Positions 6,125-28,160 of a stretch of DNA of 64,000 bases are shown here, in pieces; the first letter of the stretch is position 1, and every line of letters begins with the position of its first letter. The DNA is taken from contig JBEKTZ010000008.1 in assembly GCA_049515535.1 (NCBI GenBank), forward strand, positions 104,173 through 168,172. The letters are read 5' to 3'. The position numbers and the translations under genes are program-made. Under the pieces are notes generated by a model. That model saw only the letters and a program-made list of their open reading frames with translations. It was not told the origin of the DNA and did not search any database. This stretch comes from Candidatus Aminicenantales bacterium. Its GTDB lineage: Bacteria > Acidobacteriota > Aminicenantia > Aminicenantales > UBA4085.

Positions 6125-8400
6125 ACGGCTCAGCGCTCCGGATCACGGTCTTCGGCGTCGTCCAGGGCGTCGGATTCAGGCCCTTCATTTATCGCCTCGC
6201 CGGACGTTTCGGCTACAAAGGCTGGGTCAAAAATGCCGGCCGCGGGGTCGAGATCCACATCGAGACCGAAAGAAAAACCTCCTTTAAAAAATTTCTCGAG
6301 GCGATCACGGCCGAAAAACCTCCTCTGGCCCGGATCGAGAGCTTGACGTCTGAGCGCGCGGGCTTCAAAGGTCATCAGGATTTCACGGTCAAAAAGTCCG
6401 GCAAAGGGAAGCGTTTCGTATTTGTCTCTCCCGATATTTCGACCTGCGCGAACTGCCTCGAGGATATCGCGAACCCCGAGGACCGCCGGTTCCGCTATCC
6501 ATTCACGAACTGCACCGACTGCGGCCCCCGCTACACGATCGTGACGGAGCTGCCGTACGACCGTCCCTCCACGACGATGGCCGGCTTCCCGATGTGCCCG
6601 GACTGTTCCGCCGAGTACGACGATCCCCGCGACAGGCGCTATCACGCCCAGCCGATCGCCTGTCCGCGCTGCGGCCCGTCGGTCCGGCTTCGCGAGGCGA
6701 AAACGGGCCGGGAGATCCCGGGAGGAATCGAGCGGGCTGCCGCGCTCATCGGGCAAGGCAAAATCCTGGCGATCAAAGGGCTCGGCGGATTTCATCTCGT
6801 CTGCGACCCCCTGAATCTCAAGGCCGTCCGCCGGCTGCGTCGGATCAAGGAACGGCGCACAAAGCCTCTGGCCCTCATGGCCCGGGATCTGAGGACCATC
6901 GAGAAATACGCCCCGATCTCGCCCGAAGAGAGAAAATTCCTTCTCTCCGAAAGGCGTCCGATCGTCCTTCTGAAAAAGAAAAGGGACATTCCCGGGATTG
7001 CCCCGAATCTCGACGACATAGGGTTCATGCTTCCTTTTACGCCGTTGCATCATCTTTTGCTCGAGGATATCGAGCTTATCGTGGCGACTAGTTCGAACAT
7101 GAAAGATGCCCCGATCATGAAAGACGAGAACGAAGGCATCCGGAGCCTCTGCGATGCCATCCTCGGCCACGACCGGCCGATCGCGATGAGAGCGGACGAC
7201 TCCGTGCTCAAGATCGTGGACGCGGCGCCGCTTTTTATCCGCAGAGCGCGCGGCTATGTCCCTTATCCGCAGAAGGTTCCGGCGGAGCTCCGCTCCTCCC
7301 GATCCATCCTGGCCTTGGGAGGCGAGCTCAAAGACACGGTCTCCATATATAAAAACGGCTATATCGTCACGAGCCAGTTCCTGGGCGACCTGGATGAATA
7401 CAAAAACCGGATCTATTTCGAAGAGACGATCGCCCATTTGACGAAATTGTTCGACCTCAAGCCGGATTGTGTGGTCACGGACCTCCATCCCGGCTTTCAT
7501 TCGACCCGCCATGCCAAAAAGCTCGGACTTCCCCATCTTCAGGTCCAGCACCATCATGCGCATGTCCTGGCCGGCATGATCGAACATGGGATTTCTCCAG
7601 GAACCAGGGTTCTCGGCGTCGCCTGGGACGGCTTCGGCTACGGCGCCGACGGAACGGCTTGGGGCGGAGAATTTCTTCTGGCCGACTATCTAACCTTCGA
7701 GAGGTTCGCCCATTTCGAGCCCGTCCCTCTGCCCGGCAGAGACCTAGCGGCCAAGCAGCCGTGGCGGATGGCCTTAGCCTATCTCCGTGAAGCCGGGGTT
7801 GTCCGCGTTCCTCGGTTAGGAACTCTCAGAAGCATCAAGGAAAGAAAAATCCGGGGGGTGAAGGCCATGATGGACGGCCGGATCCATTCTCCATTGTCGT
7901 CGAGTTGCGGCCGGTTGTTCGATGCCGTTTCCGCCCTCCTCGGCACCGCCCCGATCGAGAACGAGTTCGAAGCCGAGGCGGCCATGCGGCTGGAAGCAAC
8001 AGCCTCGGGACGCGAGAAAAGGCCCTATCCTTTTCTTATAACTTGCGAAAAAAAGCCCTTTCTGATCTCCTTCGCGGAAACTGTCCGGAGCCTCTTGGCG
8101 GACCTTGAGCGAGGCTTATCGCCGTCCCGGATCTCCGGAAAATTCCACGCCACGCTGGCCCGCGTCATCGTCGAAGTCGCACTGAAGGCGAAGAAGGAAC
8201 ACGGGATCGAAATCGTCGTTCTCAGCGGAGGGGTCTTTCTGAATGCGAAACTGCTTCGGCTCGCCGCCGAAGGATTGAGACAAAGGGGATTGAGAGTTTT
8301 AAGACCCCTTGGTTATTCTCCGAACGATGAATCTCTATCCGTGGGACAGATCGCCCATGCCTTGGCCCGGATGGGAAACAAGCGGACCCTCAAGCGCTAG
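6121..8400 (+). CDS. hypF: [NiFe]-hydrogenase maturation carbamoyltransferase HypF
   Basis: Acylphosphatase domain (VQGVGFRPFIY). Two CxxC-x18-CxxC zinc fingers. YrdC-like and Kae1/YgjD-like domains. Start overlaps the queH stop (ATGA). Confidence 0.9.
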   Translation: MNGSALRITVFGVVQGVGFRPFIYRLAGRFGYKGWVKNAGRGVEIHIETERKTSFKKFLEAITAEKPPLARIESLTSERAGFKGHQDFTVKKSGKGKRFVFVSPDISTCANCLEDIANPEDRRFRYPFTNCTDCGPRYTIVTELPYDRPSTTMAGFPMCPDCSAEYDDPRDRRYHAQPIACPRCGPSVRLREAKTGREIPGGIERAAALIGQGKILAIKGLGGFHLVCDPLNLKAVRRLRRIKERRTKPLALMARDLRTIEKYAPISPEERKFLLSERRPIVLLKKKRDIPGIAPNLDDIGFMLPFTPLHHLLLEDIELIVATSSNMKDAPIMKDENEGIRSLCDAILGHDRPIAMRADDSVLKIVDAAPLFIRRARGYVPYPQKVPAELRSSRSILALGGELKDTVSIYKNGYIVTSQFLGDLDEYKNRIYFEETIAHLTKLFDLKPDCVVTDLHPGFHSTRHAKKLGLPHLQVQHHHAHVLAGMIEHGISPGTRVLGVAWDGFGYGADGTAWGGEFLLADYLTFERFAHFEPVPLPGRDLAAKQPWRMALAYLREAGVVRVPRLGTLRSIKERKIRGVKAMMDGRIHSPLSSSCGRLFDAVSALLGTAPIENEFEAEAAMRLEATASGREKRPYPFLITCEKKPFLISFAETVRSLLADLERGLSPSRISGKFHATLARVIVEVALKAKKEHGIEIVVLSGGVFLNAKLLRLAAEGLRQRGLRVLRPLGYSPNDESLSVGQIAHALARMGNKRTLKR

Positions 8401-14818: not shown

Positions 14819-14884
14819 CGTTTCTTGACTTGCTCCAACCCAAATGATAGAAAGACATTTCCCGCATTCTTCAAGGAGGTTCGC

Positions 14885-17551
14885 ATGACAAAAGGACTGA
14901 AAAACCTGATGTTCGGATCGCTGGCCTTTCTTGTCGTAGCCGGATTCCTCGCCGCCCAGACGACGCCCGAGGCGTTCCTGGGCTTCAAGGTCGGCGCGGA
15001 CCGGAAGCTCGCCGATTACAACCAGATCAAGGCTTACTTCGAAAAACTCTCTCAAGAAGCGCCGAAAAAGCTCAAGCTCCTGACCATCGGCGAAAGCACG
15101 ATGAAAAAGCCCATGATCATGGCCGTGATCACCTCGGAAGAGAACATGGCCAAGCTCGACGCTTATCGCGAGATCATCAAGAAATTGCGCGACCCGCGAA
15201 CGCTGTCCGTCGAAGACGCCAGGAAACTGGCCAAGGAAGGCAAGGCGATCGTCCTGATCACCTGCAGCCTCCACTCCACGGAGATCGCCGCGTCGCAGAT
15301 GTCCATGGAGCTGGCCTATGACCTGGTCACGGGCAAGACACCGTTCGACGCCAAAAAGGTCTTAAGCGACGTCATCGTCCTGCTCTGTCCGACGCACAAC
15401 CCGGACGGCATCCAGATGGTCGTGGACTGGTACAAAAAATACTTGGGAACCAAATACGAAAGCGGCAGCATGCCCTTCCTCTATCATTATTACGCCGGCC
15501 ACGACGACAACCGCGATTACTACATGATCAACCTCGCCGAAACCAAGGCAATCACCAAGGTCCTTTATTACGACTGGCTGCCCCAGGTCCACATCGACGA
15601 ACATCAGCAAGGTTCCAACGGCGCCCGGCTCTTCATCCCGCCGCTGATGGACCCGCCGCTTCCCAACATCCAGCCGCTCGTCTGGCGGACGGTCAACCTC
15701 ATGGGAACGGCTATGGCCTACGACCTGCAAAAGAACGGGATGAGCGGCGTCGTCAACGGCCGGAGCTATACCGGCTGGTACATCGGCGCCTGCGACGACA
15801 CACCCTGGCTGCACAATGTCATCGGCATCCTGAGCGAGGCGGCTTCGGTCCGCCTGGCCACTCCCATCTACATCGAGCCGACCGAGATCCCGAAATCTTT
15901 CAACGAAAAAATGATGGATTTCGTCGATCCCTGGCCGGGCGGCTGGTGGCGCCTGCGGGACATCGTCGACTACGAGCTCGTCCTGTCCCAGAGCCTGGTC
16001 AAGACCGCCGCGCTCAACAAGGAAGACCTTCTCTTCAATTTCTATATGATGAACAAGACCGCGGTCGAGAAAGTGGACAAGAACCAGCCCTACGCCTTCG
16101 TCATCTCCGCGAAACAACACGATTACCCGACCATGCTCAAGATGATCGACGTCCTGCAGCTGGGCGGCATCGAGATCTATCAGGCCAAGGCCGATTTCAT
16201 CGCCGGCGATAAATACTATCCGGCCGGCTCCTTCGTCGTGAAAATGGCCCAGCCCTACAAGGCCTACGCCTGGGCGATCCTGGAAAAACAGAAATATCCC
16301 GATATGCGGGAATACCCCGGCGGCCCTCCCCAACCGCCTTACGACAATGCCGGCTGGACGCTCCCCATCCAGATGGGCGTCGCCTGCGACCAGGTCAAAG
16401 AACCGTTCGAGGCCAAGCTCGAAAAAATCGACAAGGTTCCCTATCCGCAGGTTCCGGCGGGGCAAGGGAACGGCGCGTATATCGTCCTGGGCTCACAGAT
16501 CAACGCCTCATATCCGATCGTCTTCGCCCTTTTGAAGGACGCCAAAGCCGAAGTCTGGCGAACCAAGGCCAGAATCGCCAAGAAAGACTATGATATTCCG
16601 GCCGGAAGCTTCATCGTCAAGAACGGGCCCGATATCAAAAAAGCGCTCCCCGGCCTTCAGGCCAAATATCACCTTTCCGTCATCGATCTCGACGACGCCG
16701 CGGACATCGCTAAAGCCCCGCTCAAGTTCCACCGCGTCGGTCTCTACCAGTCATGGCGCGGCAACATGGACGAAGGTTGGACCCGGTACATGTTCGACGA
16801 TCTGGGCATTCCCTATACGACCCTCCACAACGACTATTTCAAGGGCACGAAAGAGAAGAAAACGGACATCAAAGCCGACTACGACGTCATCGTTTTCGCC
16901 GACGAGAACGGGGCCATGATCAAATCGGGAACGCGCGGCGCCGGCGGGCCGGGCGGAGCCGGTGGACCGGGCGGAGCCGCGGGCGGCGGGCCGGCCGCAG
17001 CAGCTCAGCGGCCGACGAGCTCGACGACCCCTCCGGAATATGAAGGCGGAATCGGGCAGGAAGGCGTGGACGCGCTGAAAGCGTTCGTCGAGAAAGGCGG
17101 CACGATCGTCCTGCTCAACCAGGCCTGCACCCTGGCTTTCAGTGAATTCGAAATCCCGGCCCGCAATGCCCTCCAGAGCGTGGACCGGACGAAATTCTTC
17201 TGCCCGAGCTCGGTCCTGAAGATCCTCGTGGACAACGAGACGCCAATCGGCTACGGCATGCCCAAGGAAGCCGGGGCGATGTTCGTCAACAGCCTGGCCC
17301 TGGACACGTCCTCGCCCGGCTTCGAATGGGACCGGAAGGTCGTCGCGAGCTATCCCGAGGACGGCGTTCTCATGAGCGGCTGGCTTGTCGGCGAGGACGT
17401 CATCGCCCGCAAAGCAGTGGTCGTGGATACGAAATACAAGGAGGGGCATATCGTCCTCATCGGCATCCGCAGCCAGAACCGCGCCCAGTCCCACGGCACG
17501 TACAAGTTCCTGCTGAACGGGCTATTGTATCCGGATAAAGAGGAAAAATAA
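14885..17551 (+). CDS. Large secreted M14-like metallocarboxypeptidase domain protein with a Gly-rich linker and a C-terminal domain of unknown function
   Basis: Signal peptide. HxxE (SLHSTE), NPDG and a His-rich region consistent with M14. Linker GTRGAGGPGGAGGPGGAAGGGPAAAA. ATG at 14885 with CAAGGAGG upstream. Confidence 0.6.
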   Translation: MTKGLKNLMFGSLAFLVVAGFLAAQTTPEAFLGFKVGADRKLADYNQIKAYFEKLSQEAPKKLKLLTIGESTMKKPMIMAVITSEENMAKLDAYREIIKKLRDPRTLSVEDARKLAKEGKAIVLITCSLHSTEIAASQMSMELAYDLVTGKTPFDAKKVLSDVIVLLCPTHNPDGIQMVVDWYKKYLGTKYESGSMPFLYHYYAGHDDNRDYYMINLAETKAITKVLYYDWLPQVHIDEHQQGSNGARLFIPPLMDPPLPNIQPLVWRTVNLMGTAMAYDLQKNGMSGVVNGRSYTGWYIGACDDTPWLHNVIGILSEAASVRLATPIYIEPTEIPKSFNEKMMDFVDPWPGGWWRLRDIVDYELVLSQSLVKTAALNKEDLLFNFYMMNKTAVEKVDKNQPYAFVISAKQHDYPTMLKMIDVLQLGGIEIYQAKADFIAGDKYYPAGSFVVKMAQPYKAYAWAILEKQKYPDMREYPGGPPQPPYDNAGWTLPIQMGVACDQVKEPFEAKLEKIDKVPYPQVPAGQGNGAYIVLGSQINASYPIVFALLKDAKAEVWRTKARIAKKDYDIPAGSFIVKNGPDIKKALPGLQAKYHLSVIDLDDAADIAKAPLKFHRVGLYQSWRGNMDEGWTRYMFDDLGIPYTTLHNDYFKGTKEKKTDIKADYDVIVFADENGAMIKSGTRGAGGPGGAGGPGGAAGGGPAAAAQRPTSSTTPPEYEGGIGQEGVDALKAFVEKGGTIVLLNQACTLAFSEFEIPARNALQSVDRTKFFCPSSVLKILVDNETPIGYGMPKEAGAMFVNSLALDTSSPGFEWDRKVVASYPEDGVLMSGWLVGEDVIARKAVVVDTKYKEGHIVLIGIRSQNRAQSHGTYKFLLNGLLYPDKEEK

Positions 17552-17608
17552 GCTCAAAACCGAGAGCGAGCCGTCTCTTCCGGGCGGCGGGCTCACCGTC
17601 CATAAAAA

Positions 17609-17641
17609 AAGGGGCCGCCTTCCGGCAGCCCCTTTTTCTTC
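17609..17641. terminator. Bidirectional intrinsic terminator (A-tract, GGGGCCGCC/GGCAGCCCC hairpin, T-tract) between the convergent M14-like and M42 genes
   Basis: AAAAAAAGGGGCCGCCTTCCGGCAGCCCCTTTTTCTTC read directly. Confidence 0.55.
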
Positions 17642-17651
17642 TCTAAATGAA

Positions 17652-18926
17652 CTACTTCCACTCCTCGACGATGGCCGCGATAAGGCTGGTCAAGCCTTCG
17701 AGATCGCTCTTGACGATCTTCTCGATGAAGGAATGGGCGGAGGTCCCGGCCCATGACAGCGGGATATCCACGGCGCCGTCGGCGACGAAGACCGAGCCGT
17801 CGTTTCCGCCTCGCGAATTCCTGATCTGGATCGGAATTTTATGCGCCTCGGCGATTTTCGCGACCTTGAAGATCTCGGTCTTGGGCGTGACGTTGCTCGT
17901 GTCGATCGAGCGAAGCACGGCCCCCTTGCCGAGCACCGCATCGGCGAACCGCTTGTTCTCGAGAGGCGAATCCGAAGAGACGAACGTGTCGACGGCAAAG
18001 ACATAATCGGGCTTCATGACCTTGGCCAGCGCCTGGGCGCCGTAGAGGCCGATCTCCTCTTCCACGTCCCAGGCAAAGGTGACCGTCTTCGTTTTGATTT
18101 TCGACCAGTCGAACTGGAGCGCGACGGCCAGCAAAGCGGCGCAGCCGGCCCGGTCATCCACCGCGCGCGTGGCCAAGATGTCAGGGGAGAGATCCACGAT
18201 TCTCTTTTTGAAGAGAACCTGGTCGCCCTCGGCGACGCCGAGATCGCGGACTTCCTTTTCCGTGGAAACCCCGAGATAGACTTCAAAGATATCGGCGGCG
18301 GCTTGCGCCTGGACGGGGTTCTGGGCCGGAGCCTGCGCGGCAAGTTTTGTCTGAGCGGGCTGCGCGGCCGGCTTCTGAGCCGGAGTCGATGCCGGAACGG
18401 TGCCGCGCTGAGGCGCGGGCTGGCCTTGAGGAGGATTTTGCGTCGACGCCTGGGGGGCCGATGTCCGCGTGGGAGCGGCGGCCGCGGTCGGGCCCTGATA
18501 GTAATCCGGCTTGGGCTGGATGATGCCCTCGACCGGTCCTTTAGCCGTATAGATGATAAACGGCCGGGCTTCGCAAGTTTGGGGCAGCAGTCCGCCCCGC
18601 GCCTTCAGCATGACGGTTCCCTGCGGGGTGAGTTTATCGACAACGAATCCCAGTTCGTCCAGATGGGCCACGATGAGAATATGCGGATTCCCCGACCCGA
18701 CCGTGAACCAGACGTTGGACTTCGCGTCCCTCTGGACTTTGAGCGACGACGGCAGGACGGACTGGACAAAATCCGCGACTTTCCCTTCCTGGCTGGAGAG
18801 GCCCGGCACGAGGACGATCTTTCGGAGGAGATCCCAGCTCGAAGCGGTGGGCACGTTCTGCTGGGCCGAAACCGCGAGGTTCAAGGTCAACGCCGACAAA
18901 ATGATGATAAAAGCTGTTTTTCTCAT
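17652..18926 (-). CDS. Secreted M42 family (TET/FrvX-like) aminopeptidase with a Pro/Ala/Gln-rich insertion
   Basis: Signal peptide. M42 metal-ligand motifs AHLDELGF and DDRAGC. A ~65-aa P/A/Q low-complexity insert. Confidence 0.75.
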   Translation of the reverse strand: MRKTAFIIILSALTLNLAVSAQQNVPTASSWDLLRKIVLVPGLSSQEGKVADFVQSVLPSSLKVQRDAKSNVWFTVGSGNPHILIVAHLDELGFVVDKLTPQGTVMLKARGGLLPQTCEARPFIIYTAKGPVEGIIQPKPDYYQGPTAAAAPTRTSAPQASTQNPPQGQPAPQRGTVPASTPAQKPAAQPAQTKLAAQAPAQNPVQAQAAADIFEVYLGVSTEKEVRDLGVAEGDQVLFKKRIVDLSPDILATRAVDDRAGCAALLAVALQFDWSKIKTKTVTFAWDVEEEIGLYGAQALAKVMKPDYVFAVDTFVSSDSPLENKRFADAVLGKGAVLRSIDTSNVTPKTEIFKVAKIAEAHKIPIQIRNSRGGNDGSVFVADGAVDIPLSWAGTSAHSFIEKIVKSDLEGLTSLIAAIVEEWK

Positions 18927-20035
18927 TTGATCCTCCCGGATTGAGCCAGTTGGAAGACCAGCGTTTTTAAGAACTGAACGTCTTTAAGATCGATGATTTC
19001 CGACGGCGTCTGCGCGAATTTGACCGGCAGCGCCAGCATGAGGGCCTCGGTCCCGTCTCCGGCCAAGCCGCTCAAGAGAGCGGAATCCACGCCCGACTGG
19101 TATTGAAGCGGGATCTTGTTCTCACGGGCGACAGCTTCCACGGCGTCTTTGAGCTTCGGCGCGCCGTCCTTCGGCAGGATGAGGACGGGGCCTTTGCCGA
19201 GGGCCGGTCCCTGTTCACTCCGTTCGGCGGGAACGCCGTCGATAAGGATCGCCGCCTTGGGCTGGAGCGTCTTTTTGGCGCGGATAGCGCCGAGCGAGGA
19301 CCTGGCGCCCCCCGAACGGGTGGGATATTTCGACTGGGCCATCCAGGCGAGGACGATTTCCTTGGAGAGTTTCGCCTTGCCCAGCTCGTCGGCCAGCTCC
19401 AGAAGCAGCGCGCATGAGGCTTTCTGGCCAAGCGACGGGCCGGCCCACCTGTCATTGGCCAGGGTGCTGATCTCGGGCCAGAGCGTCACGGCGTCGAGGT
19501 TCTCGACGCCTTTTTTCCTGGCCTCGTCCTCCGACCGGACGCCGATGTCCACATAAGCGAGGTCGAGGGAGAAGTTTTTGAGCTCTTCGCGCCGCTCGCG
19601 CGTGAGCAAATGCATGGCCGGCTGGACGACGATCCCGTAGAGAAGCCCTTTCTGCGTGGATATGACCACCGGATGGCCGAGCAGATAATTATCGAAATTC
19701 GGATGCGGCTGGGAGGAGCGGTCCAAGCGCAAATATCCGTCCGGGGTGATGCCGCTCACGAACCAGCCGTACTCATCCAGGGCCGCCAGGATCGCGAGGC
19801 TTTTATCCCCCGACCCGAGACGGGCATAGAGGCTCCCGAGATTGTCCTTTTCCACGGCGTTTTTCGGAAGATAGGACATGATCTTGGCGGCCAGCGCCTC
19901 CTCGTTTCCCAGGACCGAGGGAATGGAGACGGCCTCCCGGATCAGGTCTTTGATCTCATACGAGGCCGCGGAAGTCGCTCCGAAGACGAGGAGCAGCACC
20001 GCGGGCCAAATCCTGCCGCAAATCCTTTTTTTCAT
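18923..20035 (-). CDS. Secreted M42-like paralog with degenerate metal-binding residues (probable pseudo-peptidase)
   Basis: Same fold-level similarity, but AALDEYGW (His to Ala) and NDRWAG (Asp to Asn). Signal peptide. 4-nt overlap with the downstream M42 gene. Confidence 0.6.
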   Translation of the reverse strand: MKKRICGRIWPAVLLLVFGATSAASYEIKDLIREAVSIPSVLGNEEALAAKIMSYLPKNAVEKDNLGSLYARLGSGDKSLAILAALDEYGWFVSGITPDGYLRLDRSSQPHPNFDNYLLGHPVVISTQKGLLYGIVVQPAMHLLTRERREELKNFSLDLAYVDIGVRSEDEARKKGVENLDAVTLWPEISTLANDRWAGPSLGQKASCALLLELADELGKAKLSKEIVLAWMAQSKYPTRSGGARSSLGAIRAKKTLQPKAAILIDGVPAERSEQGPALGKGPVLILPKDGAPKLKDAVEAVARENKIPLQYQSGVDSALLSGLAGDGTEALMLALPVKFAQTPSEIIDLKDVQFLKTLVFQLAQSGRIK

Positions 20036-20128: not shown

Positions 20129-22354
20129 TCATTTCTTGAGGAAGCGGCCGAAGAAGTCGTCGGCCGCATTGAACGTGCGCAGCCATTTACGGAAGACCAG
20201 GAAGTCGTGCACTTCATCGGGATAGACAATGAGCTCATGATAGATGTTCCGCGCCCGCAATAGCTGCACGAGTCCGGTCAACTGCGAGAACTCCACGTTG
20301 CGATCGTCATCGCCCTGGACCAGCAGCACGGGCGACGTCCACTTGTCCACCGTGGCGACCACCGACGATTTGAACGCGACGTTGTTGGTGTCCAGCGAGT
20401 TCCCCCAGAGGTGAACGCCGGCGATGTCCACGCCGGCGGCGAAGAGGTCCGAGTTGCGCGAGAGACCCATCGCGGTGAGCAGGCCGCCGTAAGACAAGCC
20501 CCACAACCCGATCCGCTTCGGATCCACGTCGGGCCGCGACTGGAGATATTTTGCCGCGGCATAGATGTCCTGATACTCGGAGGAGCCGCCCTGGCCGCGG
20601 TTGGCAGCCATGCGAAAATCCCGGCCGTAGCCGATGCCGGAGCGGTAATTCACCGAGATGACGACATAACCCTTGGCGGCGAAATACTGATTGACGGCAT
20701 AGGCCAGGTGATAGAAGAACATGTAGTGGTAGCCGAGCAGCATCTGGCGGCCGGGACCGCCGTGGGTGAAGAGGATCGCCGCCCGCTGTTCGCCGGGACG
20801 GATGTCCTTCGGCAGGAAGAGCTGGGTATGGAACTTCAGGCCGTCCTCGGCCGTGAGGATGATCTGTTCCGGGACGACATGGTCTTCGAGGGGAAAGCCG
20901 GCGGGAAGTTTCGTGATGATATCGGTCTTCCCGTCTTGCGTCTCGACGACGGCGATCGAGAGCGGGCGCTTCGCGTCCGCGTACATGATGGCGACTTTGG
21001 CACCGGAAGCGAGCGGCGCGGGCGATGTCTCGATCCCATCGCCCGTGGTGATCTGGACGGACGGCCCTCCCGCCGTCGGCGTACGCCAGAGATCCCGGCG
21101 GTCGATGTCGCCGGCGTTCGAGCTGTAGAAAAGGCTTTTACCGTCCGCCGAAAATCCGATGGTCTCCGCTTCTCCCTCCCCCGGAGTGATGTCGACCGGC
21201 GCCGTATCGGGCCCGCCGGTTGCCGGCACGGAATAATAATGCTGCCAGTTATTGCGTTCGAGCCGGAAGACCAGATGATCTGCCTCCCATTGGATTTCCC
21301 TGATCGCCCGGAAGGAGGCATCGTCGAGCGGATCGCGCCAAACCTCTTCGGTTTTTCCCGACTCCAAATCGAAAACCAAAAAGGCGAGGACATGCCCGTC
21401 CTCGAATTTCGCCGATTGGAATCCCGGACTCGAAGCGATCTTCGGCACCGCCTCTTCTTTCGCCGGAGGCGCGGCCGGGACCGCGGGTCTCGCCGGAAAC
21501 TGACCCCGCCCCGCGGCGACCGTGGCGAGAGCCGCGGCGGTGATCTGGGAAAACGTCGAGCCCGGCCGGCGGATGAAGGCGATCTTTCTGCCATCGGGAG
21601 ACCAAGCCGGGCTGGTATCCTTATCGACCGAAGGCGCTATATACGTGATCCTGCGGCTGGTATGCTCGTAGATACCGATGAAACCATGATCCTTCCGGTC
21701 GCTGACGAAGGCAATCTTCCTGCCGTCGGGCGACCAGCGCGGATCGGCGTTCGTGCCCCACGCGCGGAACAGCGGATAGCGCTCATCGAGCTCCGGACCG
21801 GCCCCGACGCCGGCCGGACTTTTCAATTTCCTGCCCGGCTCCCGGACGGGAACTTCGTAGATCTGGCCGTCTTTCACGAACAGCACCCATTGCCCGTCCG
21901 GAGAGAGCTCCGGCCCCCTTGCCGCGGTCAAGCGAAAAGGCTTTCTCTCATTCGTCCGGACCGCCCAGATCGCCTGTTCGCTGCCGTCGGGGAACGTCGA
22001 GGGATTGGCGTTCCAGCCTTCCCGGTTCGGGTCCGAACCGCGGACGAAGATCACGACGGCGCCGTCGTCCGAAATCGCCAGGCTTTTTGTCTCGGTCCCG
22101 TCGTCCGCGGCAAAATCGGTCAGACGGACAGGCTTGAAGTCCGGAGCCGCGGCGGTATAAACGTTACGCTGTCCCTGTTCGAACTCGATCCAGGCGATGC
22201 GGTCGGCCTTTTTTGCGGAGACCAGTTCCAAGGGGATGGGAGCGCTCAACACCTGCTCGATGGAGAAAGGTTTCTGGGCGAAGATGGAAGGAGCCAGAAG
22301 CAGGACGGCGAGGGCAAGGCTCCCCATGGACGCGCGAAGGCGGAATTCTTTCAT
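20129..22354 (-). CDS. Secreted S9 family serine peptidase (prolyl oligopeptidase/dipeptidyl-peptidase type) with an N-terminal beta-propeller
   Basis: Signal peptide. TolB-like propeller repeats. Catalytic GWSYGG-type motif (GLWGLSYGG), plus DDD and H of the alpha/beta-hydrolase triad near the C-terminus. Confidence 0.85.
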   Translation of the reverse strand: MKEFRLRASMGSLALAVLLLAPSIFAQKPFSIEQVLSAPIPLELVSAKKADRIAWIEFEQGQRNVYTAAAPDFKPVRLTDFAADDGTETKSLAISDDGAVVIFVRGSDPNREGWNANPSTFPDGSEQAIWAVRTNERKPFRLTAARGPELSPDGQWVLFVKDGQIYEVPVREPGRKLKSPAGVGAGPELDERYPLFRAWGTNADPRWSPDGRKIAFVSDRKDHGFIGIYEHTSRRITYIAPSVDKDTSPAWSPDGRKIAFIRRPGSTFSQITAAALATVAAGRGQFPARPAVPAAPPAKEEAVPKIASSPGFQSAKFEDGHVLAFLVFDLESGKTEEVWRDPLDDASFRAIREIQWEADHLVFRLERNNWQHYYSVPATGGPDTAPVDITPGEGEAETIGFSADGKSLFYSSNAGDIDRRDLWRTPTAGGPSVQITTGDGIETSPAPLASGAKVAIMYADAKRPLSIAVVETQDGKTDIITKLPAGFPLEDHVVPEQIILTAEDGLKFHTQLFLPKDIRPGEQRAAILFTHGGPGRQMLLGYHYMFFYHLAYAVNQYFAAKGYVVISVNYRSGIGYGRDFRMAANRGQGGSSEYQDIYAAAKYLQSRPDVDPKRIGLWGLSYGGLLTAMGLSRNSDLFAAGVDIAGVHLWGNSLDTNNVAFKSSVVATVDKWTSPVLLVQGDDDRNVEFSQLTGLVQLLRARNIYHELIVYPDEVHDFLVFRKWLRTFNAADDFFGRFLKK

Positions 22355-22854: not shown

Positions 22855-24279
22855 TTAATCGAAGATCTTGCCGGGGTTCAAGATGCCGTTCGGATCGAAC
22901 GCCCTCTTGATTCCCCTCATGAGGCCGATGTGCTCCGGCGACAGGCTGCGGGAGAGATATTTCTTTTTGACCAGCCCGATGCCGTGCTCCCCCGAAATGA
23001 CGCCTCCGCGGGCGAGGCCGTCCTCATAAATCTCCTCGCGGATCTTGTCGAACGCTCCCCGCCATTCGGACTCAGGGACCGGGACGATCCGGCCGTTTTC
23101 ACAGCGGGCCTTCATGATGTGCGTATGGACGTTCCCGTCGCCGGCGTGGCCGAACGTCGGCAGCCAGAGCCCGTATTTCGCGGCGATCGCGCGGACGCGC
23201 TTGACGTGGGCCGCGATCTGTCCCCGCGGGACGCAGACGTCCAGAATCTCGATGGTATCCTGCTTGATGGCCTCGTAAATCTTGCTCCGGATGTCCAGGA
23301 CGTCAGCCTGTTTTTTGGGGGTGTCGGCGATGAAAACGTCCAGCGCCCCATGATCGAGCGCGATCGCGGCCGCGCTCTGCGAGAGACGGTCCATTTCGTC
23401 TTCGTCCGCCGCGTCGAGAATGATCAGGAGGTGCGTTTCACCCAGGGAACAAGGCCATGACTTCCGGAGACGATCCGCCGAGATCATGATCACGTCGCAG
23501 GGCATGAATTCCAGGGCGATGGGCAGGATGTTCTTGAGGAGAAGCGGGACGGTCTCGATCGCGGCATCAAGCTCGTCGAAGGGAACGATGAGCGAGCGCG
23601 TCATGGGAGGCTTAGCCAGGAATTGAATGACGGCCTTGGTCACGATCGCCAGGGTCCCTTCCGAGCCGATCATGAGATGGAGCAGGTTATAGCCCGTGCT
23701 GTTCTTGATGAGCTTGCCGCCGAGGTCGAGGATATCGCCCTGCGCCGTCACGATCTCCAGCCCGCGGACATAATTACGAAGGACGCCGTATTTCACGGCC
23801 CGGCTCCCGCCGGCGTTCGTGGCAATCATGCCGCCGATCATGGCGCTCTCGTCTCCAGGGTGAGGTGGGAAATAGAACCCCGCATCCTCGACGGCCTGTT
23901 CGAATTGCCCGAGGGTCAGCCCCGCTTCGACCACGGCCATCTGGTTGGCAATGTCGATTTCGAGGACCCGGTTCATGCGCTCGAGGGAGAGGACGATGCC
24001 GCCCGGCGCCGGAACGCACCCGCCGCATAGTCCCGTCGCCCCGCCGCGGGGCGTCACGGGAATTCTCTCGCGATCGGCGACTTCAAGGATCGCCGCCACC
24101 TGAAAGGAGGACTGCGGTTTCAAGACGAGTTCCGGCATCCGGCCGATATCGCGAAGCGAGAACTCGTCGTGGCTGTAATCGACCATTCCGTCGGGCTCGG
24201 TAATGGAATTTTTCCGGCCGACGATCTCGATGAAAACCTCCCGGATTCCCGGGTCCAGCGTAGAACTCTTCACGCTCAA
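22855..24279 (-). CDS. FAD-linked oxidase (GlcD/D-lactate dehydrogenase family)
   Basis: FAD-binding PCMH domain motifs (RGGATGLCGG) and a C-terminal FAD-oxidase domain (HAGDGNVH). Confidence 0.8.
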   Translation of the reverse strand: MSVKSSTLDPGIREVFIEIVGRKNSITEPDGMVDYSHDEFSLRDIGRMPELVLKPQSSFQVAAILEVADRERIPVTPRGGATGLCGGCVPAPGGIVLSLERMNRVLEIDIANQMAVVEAGLTLGQFEQAVEDAGFYFPPHPGDESAMIGGMIATNAGGSRAVKYGVLRNYVRGLEIVTAQGDILDLGGKLIKNSTGYNLLHLMIGSEGTLAIVTKAVIQFLAKPPMTRSLIVPFDELDAAIETVPLLLKNILPIALEFMPCDVIMISADRLRKSWPCSLGETHLLIILDAADEDEMDRLSQSAAAIALDHGALDVFIADTPKKQADVLDIRSKIYEAIKQDTIEILDVCVPRGQIAAHVKRVRAIAAKYGLWLPTFGHAGDGNVHTHIMKARCENGRIVPVPESEWRGAFDKIREEIYEDGLARGGVISGEHGIGLVKKKYLSRSLSPEHIGLMRGIKRAFDPNGILNPGKIFD

Positions 24280-25754: not shown

Positions 25755-27005
25755 ATGAAAACCATGAAAACGATCTTCGTCATCCTTGCTTTCGGCCTGA
25801 TCTTCGGAAACATGGCCTCGGCGCAGGTCAAAGACGCCGACAAGACAAAGGAAACGATCGACAGAGCCAAGGAACAGATCCAGCTAGCCTATGACCAGGC
25901 CAAAAAAGCCATCAGCCTCAAGGACTGGAAAACGGCCATCGAAGCCTGCCGGAAGATCGCGGCCGAAAACGGCAAAAGCGGCTATTACGGAGAATCCCTC
26001 TACTGGCTCGGCTACAGCATGGACCGATTCGCCAATTCGCTCGAGGACATGAAACTGCAGTTCAAGAATAAGGAAATGGCGATCGAAGAGCTGAATGTGC
26101 TTCTCCAAAAGATGCCGGAAAGTACATGGGCCAGGGACGCCAAGCTCCTTCGGCTCGAGATCGCCGAAGGACTGGCCAACAAGGGCCTGTCCGGTTACCA
26201 GAAATACATCGACGAAAGTCTGGCGGGCGGCGTTGCCGAAGGCGTGAGTGGCGGCGTGGCGGGCAGCGGCTGGAACCAGAAAAAGACCGACGCCGATACG
26301 AAACTGTACTGGAACCAGAAAAAGACCGACCCCGATACGGAACTGAAGCTCGTCGCTTTGGATGCGCTCATGCAGATGGACAGAGAGAAAGCCTTCCCGA
26401 TCCTCGAGAAAATGGTCCGGGAGGAGCAAAAACCGGAACTCAAGGAAAAGGCGCTTTTCGTCCTCAGCCAGTCTAGAGATCCAAAGGTCGTTCCGATCCT
26501 CGCCGAGCTGGCCACGAAAGATCCCTCGGACAAAATCCGGCAGACGGCCGTTTTTTGGCTCGGGCAGAGGCACGACGACGAGAGCCTGGCCGCCTTGTTG
26601 AAGATCTACGACGCCGCGGCCGCCGACTCGAAGCTCAAAGAGAACCTGATCATGGGCTTTGCTCAGAGCAAGAACGAGAAGGCCGGGGCCAAGATAATAG
26701 AAATCGCTAAAAACGACAAAGACCCCATAGCCCGGGAACGCGCCGTCTTCTGGCTGTCGCAGAGAAAGGGAGATGAGGTCCTGGCCGTCCTCCTGGATGT
26801 CTATTCTCAAACGGACAACGCGAAGCTCAAACAACAGGTCATCTTTTCCATCGCCCAGAACAAGAGCCCCAAGGCCGTCCAGACGCTGATCGACATCGCC
26901 CGCAAGGAAAAAGACTTTGAAATGAAAAAACAGATCGTCTTCTGGCTCGGCCAATCGAAGAGCGAGGAGGCGATCAAGTTCCTCAAGGAAATCCTGGATA
27001 AATGA
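25755..27005 (+). CDS. Secreted HEAT-repeat protein (PBS-lyase-like repeats)
   Basis: Signal peptide. Reiterated ~31-aa repeats with an A(V/I)FWLGQ core. Contains an in-frame 39-bp tandem duplication. Confidence 0.6.
   Translation: MKTMKTIFVILAFGLIFGNMASAQVKDADKTKETIDRAKEQIQLAYDQAKKAISLKDWKTAIEACRKIAAENGKSGYYGESLYWLGYSMDRFANSLEDMKLQFKNKEMAIEELNVLLQKMPESTWARDAKLLRLEIAEGLANKGLSGYQKYIDESLAGGVAEGVSGGVAGSGWNQKKTDADTKLYWNQKKTDPDTELKLVALDALMQMDREKAFPILEKMVREEQKPELKEKALFVLSQSRDPKVVPILAELATKDPSDKIRQTAVFWLGQRHDDESLAALLKIYDAAAADSKLKENLIMGFAQSKNEKAGAKIIEIAKNDKDPIARERAVFWLSQRKGDEVLAVLLDVYSQTDNAKLKQQVIFSIAQNKSPKAVQTLIDIARKEKDFEMKKQIVFWLGQSKSEEAIKFLKEILDK
26270..26347 (+). repeat. Perfect-frame 39-bp tandem duplication (2 copies) inside the HEAT-repeat gene, encoding WNQKKTD(A/P)DT(K/E)L(Y/K)
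   Basis: CTGGAACCAGAAAAAGACCGAC.CCGATACG.AACTG repeated head-to-tail with 3 mismatches. Confidence 0.7.
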
Positions 27006-27023: not shown

Positions 27024-28160
27024 GTGAAAAACATCACGTCAAAAGCCATCTGGAGTGGAGCGATCGCGGGATCGCTCCTTTTTATCACCCTGTTCGGCGC
27101 CGTTTTAGCGGCGGAGGAAAAACCGGCGTTTCTGAGCGGCAAGGTCCGGGACTTGAGCGGACAAAGCGTCTCTCTCGACAAAAAGCTGGAATCGGCCCGG
27201 ACGGAATTCCAGAAATCCGGCGGCGGAAAGATCTATTTCGCGGCCTATGAGTTCCTGAGCCGGCACAAGATCCGCAGGGGAAACTCCTATGGCGCCGGAG
27301 AGGGGTATGTCGTCAGCCCCAAAGAGTCCAAGATCAAGATCGAGGAAAAAGGCCGTGGATGGAACCAGGTCGGAACGGAAACGGACACAAAAGACGCTTC
27401 CTCGCCGGCCGCCCTTCTCATCCTCTACGACGCCTCCAAGAACGGGGAGATCCTGGACGTCGCTATCCTCGATAACGACCAGACCTATGATTTTGCCGAG
27501 GCCGCCGTGTTTTGGCTCGGCCGGGCGGATAACACGGAGAGCGTTTCGTTCCTGGAAAGATCCTTCGACGCGGCCAAAGGCGCATCATCGCTTCAAAAAA
27601 ACGTGATCTTCGCCGTCGGCTGCCATCAGGATCCCCGGGCGTATGCGTTCCTCAAGAAAATCGCCATCGGATCGGACGACAACAAAATCAGAGAAAGCGC
27701 CATTTTCTGGCTGGGAAATTACGGCGACGCGAAAAGCCTGGCCGATCTCAAAGACATCTTCGCCAAGGAAAAAAGCGATTCCGTCAAAAAGCAGATCGTT
27801 TTCGCCCTGCAGTTGAGCCGGCAAAAAGAAGCCGTTGAGGAGCTGATCCGGATCGCCAGACAGGACGCGAGTCTGGACGTCCGCAAGCAAGCCGTTTTCT
27901 GGCTGGGGCAAAAGGCTTCCGCCGAAAGCATCAAGGCGCTCAAGGACATCGTCGGAGAGCCGGACGAGGACACCAAATTGAAGGACCAGGCGGTCTTCGC
28001 CATCAGCCAGCTCCCCAAAGACAAATCCGTGCCGATGTTGATCGACATCGCCAAGTCGAACAAGACCGCGTCCATCCGGAAGAACGCGATCTTCTGGCTG
28101 GGGCAAAGCGGCGATCCCGCCGCGCTGAAATTCTTCGAGGAGATCCTCCTGAAGAAGTAG
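27024..28160 (+). CDS. Secreted HEAT-repeat protein, paralog of the preceding gene
   Basis: Signal/TM segment followed by the same A(V/I)FWLGQ repeat architecture. Confidence 0.6.
   Translation: MKNITSKAIWSGAIAGSLLFITLFGAVLAAEEKPAFLSGKVRDLSGQSVSLDKKLESARTEFQKSGGGKIYFAAYEFLSRHKIRRGNSYGAGEGYVVSPKESKIKIEEKGRGWNQVGTETDTKDASSPAALLILYDASKNGEILDVAILDNDQTYDFAEAAVFWLGRADNTESVSFLERSFDAAKGASSLQKNVIFAVGCHQDPRAYAFLKKIAIGSDDNKIRESAIFWLGNYGDAKSLADLKDIFAKEKSDSVKKQIVFALQLSRQKEAVEELIRIARQDASLDVRKQAVFWLGQKASAESIKALKDIVGEPDEDTKLKDQAVFAISQLPKDKSVPMLIDIAKSNKTASIRKNAIFWLGQSGDPAALKFFEEILLKK

Follow-up and report, generated by a model that had tools for sequence, protein, structure and literature searches.

A coupled pair of predicted exported M42 peptidase paralogues that appear to divide the metal site and the chamber-loop histidine between two chains in Acidobacteriota

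Peptidases of the M42 family are usually treated as cytoplasmic homo-dodecamers that act downstream of the proteasome. In the canonical M42/TET enzymes (PhTET1, PhTET2, and PhTET3, MJ0555, TmPep1050, and PepA of S. pneumoniae), each chain of the homo-oligomer has the metal site as well as the key histidine of the chamber loop, and most representatives lack a signal peptide (18 of 22, as judged by a heuristic). Here we describe two overlapping genes, A and B, in a 64,000-nucleotide stretch of DNA from a Candidatus Aminicenantales bacterium (contig JBEKTZ010000008.1, positions 104,173 to 168,172; the whole stretch is referred to below as the window, and positions are counted from its first letter). 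Gene A (18923..20035, minus strand, 370 amino acids) encodes a dead M42 paralogue and gene B (17652..18926, minus strand, 424 amino acids) an M42 aminopeptidase homologue with a full dinuclear metal site, as read from the open reading frames and sequence; the products of both are predicted to be exported. The 370-residue form of A matches a protein (P0001) from a Candidatus Aminicenantales metagenome-assembled genome with 100% identity. A and B have in common with the canonical enzymes the fold, the Pfam family, and a chamber loop at which the key His is found, but in this system the loop His and the metal site are split over different chains or domains, export is predicted, and one chain is dead. 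An earlier note on this DNA had proposed an overlapping pair of secreted M42 paralogues, and that proposal stands: the genes overlap by ATGA, both products match PF05343, and both N termini are of the signal type under the heuristic used here.

In mitochondrial processing peptidase (MPP) and in the bacterial M16 alpha/beta enzymes, an active subunit is joined by an inactive homologue that lacks the metal ligands, and the flexible loop of the latter is needed for substrate handling; the active and inactive M16 subunits are often encoded side by side. Any resemblance of these heterodimers to A and B would be one of mechanism only, since the folds and clans (M16 versus M42) are unrelated. Within the M42 family, the PhTET2-PhTET3 heterododecamer of Pyrococcus horikoshii (Appolaire et al. 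2014; PMC4220976) is a case in which duplicated paralogues co-assemble, as A and B are proposed to do. Both of its subunits are active, with different specificities, and cytoplasmic (PMC4220976, PMC12516491), whereas one partner of the A/B pair is inactive. Moreover, that particle was modelled from homodimeric blocks (PMC4220976), whereas the conservation pattern of A and B would make sense only for heterodimeric blocks. A bacterial heteromeric M42 pair, YtoP-YsdC of Bacillus subtilis (PDB 9a5r; PMC10090944), is known from in-cell crosslinking and modelling; its members are listed as M42-family paralogues, and no dead subunit, fusion, or splitting of catalytic elements is reported for it. A search of 8 million papers for exported, periplasmic, pseudoenzyme, or Acidobacteria-linked M42 proteins returned nothing relevant, which is not proof of absence, and no paper describing the A/B arrangement was found in the same search. 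As far as the literature searched shows, no pseudoenzyme subunit and no exported clade at the family level would have been described for M42 before this pair.

Both products were assigned to the family by profile searches. A scored 111.4 bits against Pfam PF05343 Peptidase_M42 (cut-off, 23.2) over profile positions 1-290 of 292, and B scored 173.8 bits in a match that spanned essentially the whole profile; the best sequence matches in the PDB were MJ0555 for A (E = 1e-27) and PhTET1 for B (E = 4e-36). About 230 homologues (114 of A and 119 of B in the family counts given below) were aligned together with A and B to PhTET2, MJ0555, and PhTET1, with the reference sequences taken from HMMER output and their numbering checked. 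M42 TET enzymes have been defined by seven catalytic residues (PhTET1 H62, D64, D173, E205, E206, D/E228, and H307) and five conserved glycines (PhTET1 G44, G77, G85, G86, and G211) (PMC12516491). All seven catalytic residues were present in B, as H88, D90, D257, E290, E291, D313, and H398 (PhTET2 H68, D70, D182, E212, E213, D235, and H323, respectively), and each position was kept in 118 or 119 of the 119 B homologues. A keeps two of the seven, D87 and D266, which are retained in 114/114 and 100/114 members of its family. The other five are lost (degenerate positions, together with the two kept residues, at 19010..19783, minus strand, by alignment to PhTET2 and PhTET1): PhTET2 H68 is replaced by A85 (His in 0/114 A homologues, with Pro, Ala, or Gly instead), D182 by G203 (Asp in 0/114 and Gly in 111/114), E212 by S235 (Glu in 0/114, with Thr or Ser instead), E213 by K236 (Glu in 0/114 and Lys or Arg in 114/114), and H323 by Q342 (His in only 21/114). 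With regard to the conserved glycines, B has four of five (Ser at the G44 position) and A has three (Ser and Gln at the G85 and G86 positions). On the strength of the catalytic residues, A is classed as a non-peptidase homologue and B as a protein with the complete M42 catalytic set, and we infer from the intact site that B has metal-dependent aminopeptidase activity. The earlier note had claimed that a His and an Asp ligand are lost in A and that B keeps its ligands. Both claims were borne out by the alignment, and the loss in A is wider than had been claimed, as neither the Glu-Glu pair nor the C-terminal His remains. The stretch AALDEYGW in A is the true counterpart of AHLDELGF, with A85 in place of the His; NDRWAG, which had been equated with DDRAGC, is not its counterpart, the homologous stretch of A being SLGQKASC, 10 residues downstream. 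As judged from the alignment, this correction strengthens the conclusion of ligand loss.

The loss of five catalytic residues might be taken to mean that A is a decaying duplicate without function. This explanation is effectively refuted, because the A reading frame is intact at over 110 loci, with identities as low as 44%, and the same degenerate states are found family-wide. Comparison with the closest loci gave ratios of nonsynonymous to synonymous substitution rates (dN/dS) of 0.14 to 0.25 for A and 0.11 to 0.19 for B, indicating purifying selection on both genes, with the reservation, to be counted against the interpretation offered here, that dS values of 0.8 to 1.6 are near saturation and make these ratios rough. 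Moreover, an alignment of 54 A sequences reaching down to 37% identity contained 20 invariant columns, the loop His among them. Because over 100 independent genomes and contigs show the degenerate positions, the gene overlap, and the signal peptides, these features are not due to chance. A is almost certainly a conserved dead paralogue. Current annotations of such proteins ("M20/M25/M40 family metallo-hydrolase," "FrvX," "endoglucanase," or "hypothetical protein") obscure the dead subunit as well as the pairing.

In PhTET2, the chamber loop (residues 120-138) controls activity via a conserved His, H123, and activity is reduced in the H123F, H123Y, and H123K mutants (Gauto et al., PMC8993905). 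H123 is reported to be close to the active site of a neighbouring subunit, and the loops of the two monomers of the dimer that serves as the TET building block touch each other (PMC8993905; for the dimeric block, also PMC4220976). The corresponding loop motif of A, QPAMHLLTRERR (residues 138-149; 19589..19624, minus strand), places His142 at the position equivalent to H123, and this His (PAMH; family motif, QP[AS]MH) was invariant in 114/114 A homologues. The same position in B is occupied by Tyr142 (PDYY), and His was found there in 0/119 B homologues (Tyr in 100 and Phe in 14). According to this alignment, the M42 loop His and metal site are divided between two chains, the former being found in A and the latter in B, and each of the two proteins appears to lack the half of the canonical catalytic apparatus that the other retains. 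The loop, counted between the His position and the DIG motif, is 20 to 21 residues long in all 114 A homologues and ranges from 14 to 80 residues in the B family. The most conserved 12-residue window of A covers the beginning of the PDZ-like dimerisation domain, and the next is in the chamber loop, whereas the top windows of B all cover metal-ligand motifs. The low-complexity insert of about 65 residues that the earlier note had seen in B was located in this same loop, as a P/A/Q-rich segment of 66 amino acids (residues 146-211; 18294..18491, minus strand) that is predicted to be disordered; the surrounding 70-residue stretch (residues 143-212) contains 20 Ala, 13 Gln, 13 Pro, and 7 Thr residues. 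In an AlphaFold model of B, the predicted local distance difference test (pLDDT) score was below 50 over residues 148-210, where no secondary structure was assigned, and the remainder was well modelled. Loops of at least 33 residues were present in 48/119 B homologues, with a P/A/Q/S/T/G fraction of 0.79. No DNA tandem repeat was detected under the P/A/Q insert with Tandem Repeats Finder, and the insert is therefore not a recent repeat expansion.

The pairing proposed in the earlier note is conserved in relatives. A scan seeded with A, with one genome per species, yielded 38 loci, all from Aminicenantes-type metagenome-assembled genomes, of which 36 could be evaluated. In each of these 36, A was followed directly by B, with a GGAGG-type ribosome-binding site and an [AG]TGA overlap (in 7 of them taken directly from the junction sequence). 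Of the two loci that could not be evaluated, one lay at a contig edge and the other contained an A gene broken beside a 20-nucleotide palindrome. In the latter (locus L037, at about position 6600 of a 2.4-Mb Aminicenantes scaffold), A breaks off at about residue 201 beside the palindrome GACAGTTACTCGTAACTGTC and no B follows; insertion of a mobile element, a deletion, or an assembly error could account for this. A second scan was seeded with B in order to remove ascertainment bias and returned 80 metagenome loci, 78 of them evaluable. A was directly upstream of B in 78/78, and no B-family gene without A was found among them. The two genes overlapped by 4 nucleotides at 71 of the 78 junctions, and the remaining 7 had a 12-nucleotide spacer containing AGGAG. 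These seven loci (L079, L081, L082, L091, L092, L094, and L097) form a sub-lineage in which the junction reads TGA AGGAGAGTAAAG ATG. An in-frame fusion was ruled out there, as a stop codon precedes the spacer. The co-occurrence of the dead and the live paralogue at a coupled junction was hence observed in 36/36 and 78/78 loci and is complemented by in-frame fusions, and the partnership of A and B is very probably obligate.

The fusions were recovered when B was searched exhaustively against 1.8 billion cluster representatives. Among the best 150 representatives, 60 were proteins of at least 600 amino acids, and 53 of these resolved into tandem M42 domains; a profile of the fusions matched at least 415 proteins. 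All fusions carrying organism names were from Acidobacteriota (Blastocatellia, Acidoferrum, and Acidiferrales). Residues were counted domain by domain in 120 fusion proteins. The C-domain had the metal site in every case, with His at the H68 position, Asp at the D182 position, Glu at the E213 position, and indeed all six ligand and catalytic positions retained in 120/120. In the N-domain, these six positions were lost (His at the H68 position in 1/120, Asp at the D182 position in 0/120, and Glu at the E213 position in 3/120). The loop His showed the opposite distribution, being present in 120/120 N-domains and in 2/120 C-domains (Trp in 78 and Tyr in 36). The fusions thus repeat, within one polypeptide, the reciprocal pattern seen with A and B, and by the gene-fusion argument the A-like and B-like modules would act together in a 1:1 ratio. 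An AlphaFold model of one fusion (P0447, 702 amino acids) had a pLDDT of 93.7 and a predicted template modelling (pTM) score of 0.92, and only the inter-domain linker (residues 344-361) was disordered; the N-domain loop was predicted to be ordered (pLDDT, 86 to 91), and a Foldseek comparison of the model with PhTET1 gave a target-normalised template modelling score of 0.91. The model indicates that the arrangement of the N- and C-domains is confidently fixed. Precomputed matches of several fusions (P0411, P0449, and P0453, among others) to Pfam PF27529 were also noted; this entry may model part of the degenerate N-domain.

A shared operon need not imply interaction, and A and B could be independent of each other, with B acting as a self-sufficient exported homo-oligomer and A as a separate peptide binder, chaperone, or inhibitor. 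Some M42 enzymes do act as homo-oligomers or dimers, and PhTET2 H123Y and H123F retain reduced activity. This seems very unlikely given that translational coupling is kept in 107/114 loci, that the pattern of loss is reciprocal, that every B in the 78 evaluable loci is accompanied by A, and that in-frame fusions of the two modules exist, with the two domains packed confidently in the model. In a neighbour-joining tree, A grouped with the fusion N-domains in 176/200 bootstraps and B with the C-domains in 142/200, whereas A and B never grouped together; these support values are approximate, as some bootstrap distances were saturated. The grouping points to one old duplication that preceded the divergence of the split and fused forms, with the step between the two being either a fusion or a fission.

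Linkage and fusions, however, establish partnership and not the role of each part. An A:B complex might form in which A is only structural, regulatory, or substrate binding (it might, for instance, stabilise or tether B or determine the size of the oligomer) and in which the loop His is kept for a reason unrelated to the site of B. In favor of this possibility, the top conserved window of A lies in the PDZ-like domain, and the invariable Lys or Arg at the E213 position of split A (114/114) could mean that the pocket has been repurposed; the latter does not extend to the fusion N-domains, in which Trp, Arg, or Leu predominates at that position. A purely structural partner would leave unexplained why the loop His is lost from B (0/119) and from the C-domains (2/120) but retained in A (114/114) and in the N-domains (120/120), as well as why the loop length is fixed in A and free in B. 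We therefore regard this alternative as unlikely, though it carries more weight than independence of the two proteins. The invariant retention of the loop His in A and its loss in B also bear on the suggestion, made in the earlier note, of a hetero-oligomeric exported peptidase with a non-catalytic scaffold subunit. The partnership that it implied is supported by the linkage, the fusions, the purifying selection, and the N termini; "scaffold" is probably too passive a term for A, and "secreted" should be read as exported only. As far as the sequences go, the most likely role of A is a contribution in trans to catalysis or to the binding of substrate. An MPP-like contribution of this kind from a dead subunit would be consistent both with the reciprocal conservation of loop His and metal site and with the trans proximity published for PhTET2 (PMC8993905).

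Both N termini have the layout of signal peptides. In A, the predicted signal peptide is MKKRICGRIWPAVLLLVFGATSA, followed by AS (residues 1-23/24; 19964..20035, minus strand), with a positive n-region, a 17-residue hydrophobic core, and small residues at -3 and -1; in B, it is MRKTAFIIILSALTLNLAVSA, followed by QQ (residues 1-21; 18864..18926, minus strand), and the AlphaFold model of B shows an N-terminal helix (residues 2-19) ahead of the domain. Each N terminus has a classical n/h/c layout with an Ala-X-Ala-type site and forms an extension of about 25 residues ahead of the canonical M42 start. Signal-peptide-like N termini were found by the same heuristic in 108/113 A homologues, 110/116 B homologues, and 103/120 fusions, compared to 4/22 canonical single-domain M42 representatives. 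Within the A and B families, the character of these extensions is conserved and their sequence is not, and in this they resemble true signal peptides. Alternatively, the hydrophobic segments might not be cleaved Sec signals, in which case the pair would be cytoplasmic or membrane anchored; in some A homologues a Cys lies close to where the h-region ends, which is a possible lipobox and would make anchoring possible, and the signal calls are heuristic. We consider this improbable, because the n/h/c layout, the Ala-X-Ala-type sites, and an extension absent from canonical M42 are conserved in type in more than 200 homologues, and even a signal anchor would still put the A and B domains outside the cytoplasm. 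Both A and B are predicted to be exported, and this is highly likely, with export meaning only passage across the inner membrane, whether to the periplasm, the surface, or the medium. Two canonical single-domain M42 proteins (P0302 and P0315), which have all ligands and the loop His, also possess convincing signal-peptide-like N termini, and exported M42 enzymes may therefore exist beyond the A/B family.

We propose that a single exported aminopeptidase is made up of A and B as its two halves. Translational coupling would supply them in roughly 1:1 amounts, and both would be exported unfolded via Sec and assemble outside the cytoplasm as A:B heterodimers, each the counterpart of the homodimeric building block of canonical M42/TET enzymes; the N:C pseudo-dimers of the fusions would be equivalent to these heterodimers. 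In such a dimer, B would provide the dinuclear metal center and the catalytic Glu, and A, without a metal site of its own, would provide the fixed-length loop whose His142 reaches across the dimer into the active site of B, where it would hold the substrate or help to activate water. The loop of B would point at the dead site of A and hence be freed of constraint, which would explain why its His was lost and why a loop of 14 to 80 residues, including the disordered P/A/Q insert, is tolerated. Homodimeric blocks, by comparison, would set the His of A beside dead sites and leave the sites of B without a His, and the conservation pattern therefore argues for heterodimers. The result would be a half-of-sites enzyme in which each heterodimer has a single composite active site and which might trim N-terminal residues from extracytoplasmic peptides and feed a peptide-scavenging bacterium. 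An exported A:B heterodimer with a single composite active site is in our judgment probable, and the action of the A loop in trans on the site of B is nearly as well favored.

Several points weigh against this proposal. Contact between A and B and the proximity of His142 to the metals of B are inferred. The trans action of H123 is itself stated cautiously in PMC8993905, where distances from the His to the active site range from about 4 to more than 20 Å in crystals, and that account does not say outright that its "adjacent subunit" is the dimer mate. The start of the B loop (P-[RK]-P-D-Y) is well conserved, and the loop hence is not simply drifting. The signal peptides were called by a simple n/h-region heuristic. 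Finally, TET complexes are reported to depend on the catalytic residues for their structural integrity (PMC12516491), and a metal-free A subunit may therefore prevent formation of the dodecamer, leaving a quaternary structure possibly unlike that of any known M42 enzyme. By our own estimate, six 66-residue inserts would amount to about 44 kDa, or about 53,000 Å^3 if compact, and, if they faced inwards, would fill approximately half of a chamber 60 Å wide (about 113,000 Å^3; chamber size from PMC8993905). In view of this bulk and of the need for catalytic residues in TET integrity, a tetrahedral (AB)6 particle is left as one option. A fuller account, which we offer tentatively as a possibility not far from even, would be that an exported M42 enzyme underwent an ancient duplication followed by complementary loss, giving an obligate heterodimer (split in Aminicenantes and fused in other Acidobacteriota) with a composite active site and a freed loop bearing P/A/Q inserts; these inserts and the metal-free A subunit may between them have done away with the closed cage, leaving an open, extracytoplasmic architecture new to M42.

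If this interpretation of A and B is true, the family is a natural experiment on the debated action of the chamber-loop His of TET/M42 enzymes in trans on the metal site, in which evolution has assigned the two elements to different chains or domains in more than 500 cases. It would also show clearly how a homo-oligomer can become an obligate hetero-oligomer through complementary degeneration, and both the split and the fused state can be compared. Members of the family are common among Acidobacteriota (Aminicenantes included), which abound in soils and sediments, and as an extracytoplasmic aminopeptidase the enzyme may be of significance for environmental peptide and nitrogen turnover.

At the junction in the window (18923..18937, minus strand), the TGA of A overlaps the ATG of B by 4 nucleotides within ATGA (18923-18926), and GGGAGG (18932-18937) is situated 5 nucleotides 5' of the ATG of B; GGAG precedes the ATG of A. 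A hairpin with A-run and U-run flanks lies between B and a convergent M14-like gene (17598..17640, strand neutral, from RNA folding), with a folding energy of -31.8 kcal/mol (z = -6.2 versus shuffled sequences), and could be a terminator able to serve both genes. A scan for promoter and terminator consensus sequences gave background-level results and missed this hairpin.

The neighbors of the pair vary across loci, with a GlcD-like oxidase upstream and an M14 protein, acetate kinase, fumarase, or POT transporter downstream. Upstream of A in the window is an S9 peptidase (20129..22354, minus strand) with PD40 repeats, a DPPIV N-terminal region, and an S9 catalytic domain; it ends 93 nucleotides from A, with no terminator-like site on the minus strand in between. 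A role for the S9 peptidase as a conserved third partner was ruled out, as there was no S9 match beside A in the 38 genome loci. The upstream neighbor of the pair in 23 loci is instead a GlcD-like flavin adenine dinucleotide (FAD) oxidase, found in the window at 22855-24279, and the S9 and ACT-domain genes of the window therefore look like a local insertion. The M14-like protein convergent to B (14825-17551, plus strand) probably starts at ATG 14885, giving about 890 to 900 amino acids; Pfam M14 covers only residues 68-232, no NCBIfam match was obtained, and the large C-terminal part is uncharacterised, with a Gly/Ala/Pro-rich low-complexity stretch of its own, GTRGAGGPGGAGGPGGAAGGGPAAAAQRPTSSTTPP. 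At least 14 further loci likewise have this M14-like protein, at 61 to 83% identity, as the downstream neighbor of A and B. Both the S9 peptidase and the M14-like protein have signal peptides by the heuristic. In the seven metagenome loci with the 12-nucleotide spacer, an MFS/POT-family peptide transporter gene (PTR2, 33.7 bits) follows B on the same strand, which links the pair to peptide uptake. The exported S9 and M14 flanks and the POT transporter are consistent with extracytoplasmic peptide scavenging. A few kilobases from the peptidase cluster, two adjoining genes (25755-27005 and 27024-28160, plus strand) encode HEAT-repeat proteins, the first of which has a sub-threshold match to an ERAP1-like C-terminal domain (32.1 bits versus a cut-off of 38.2).

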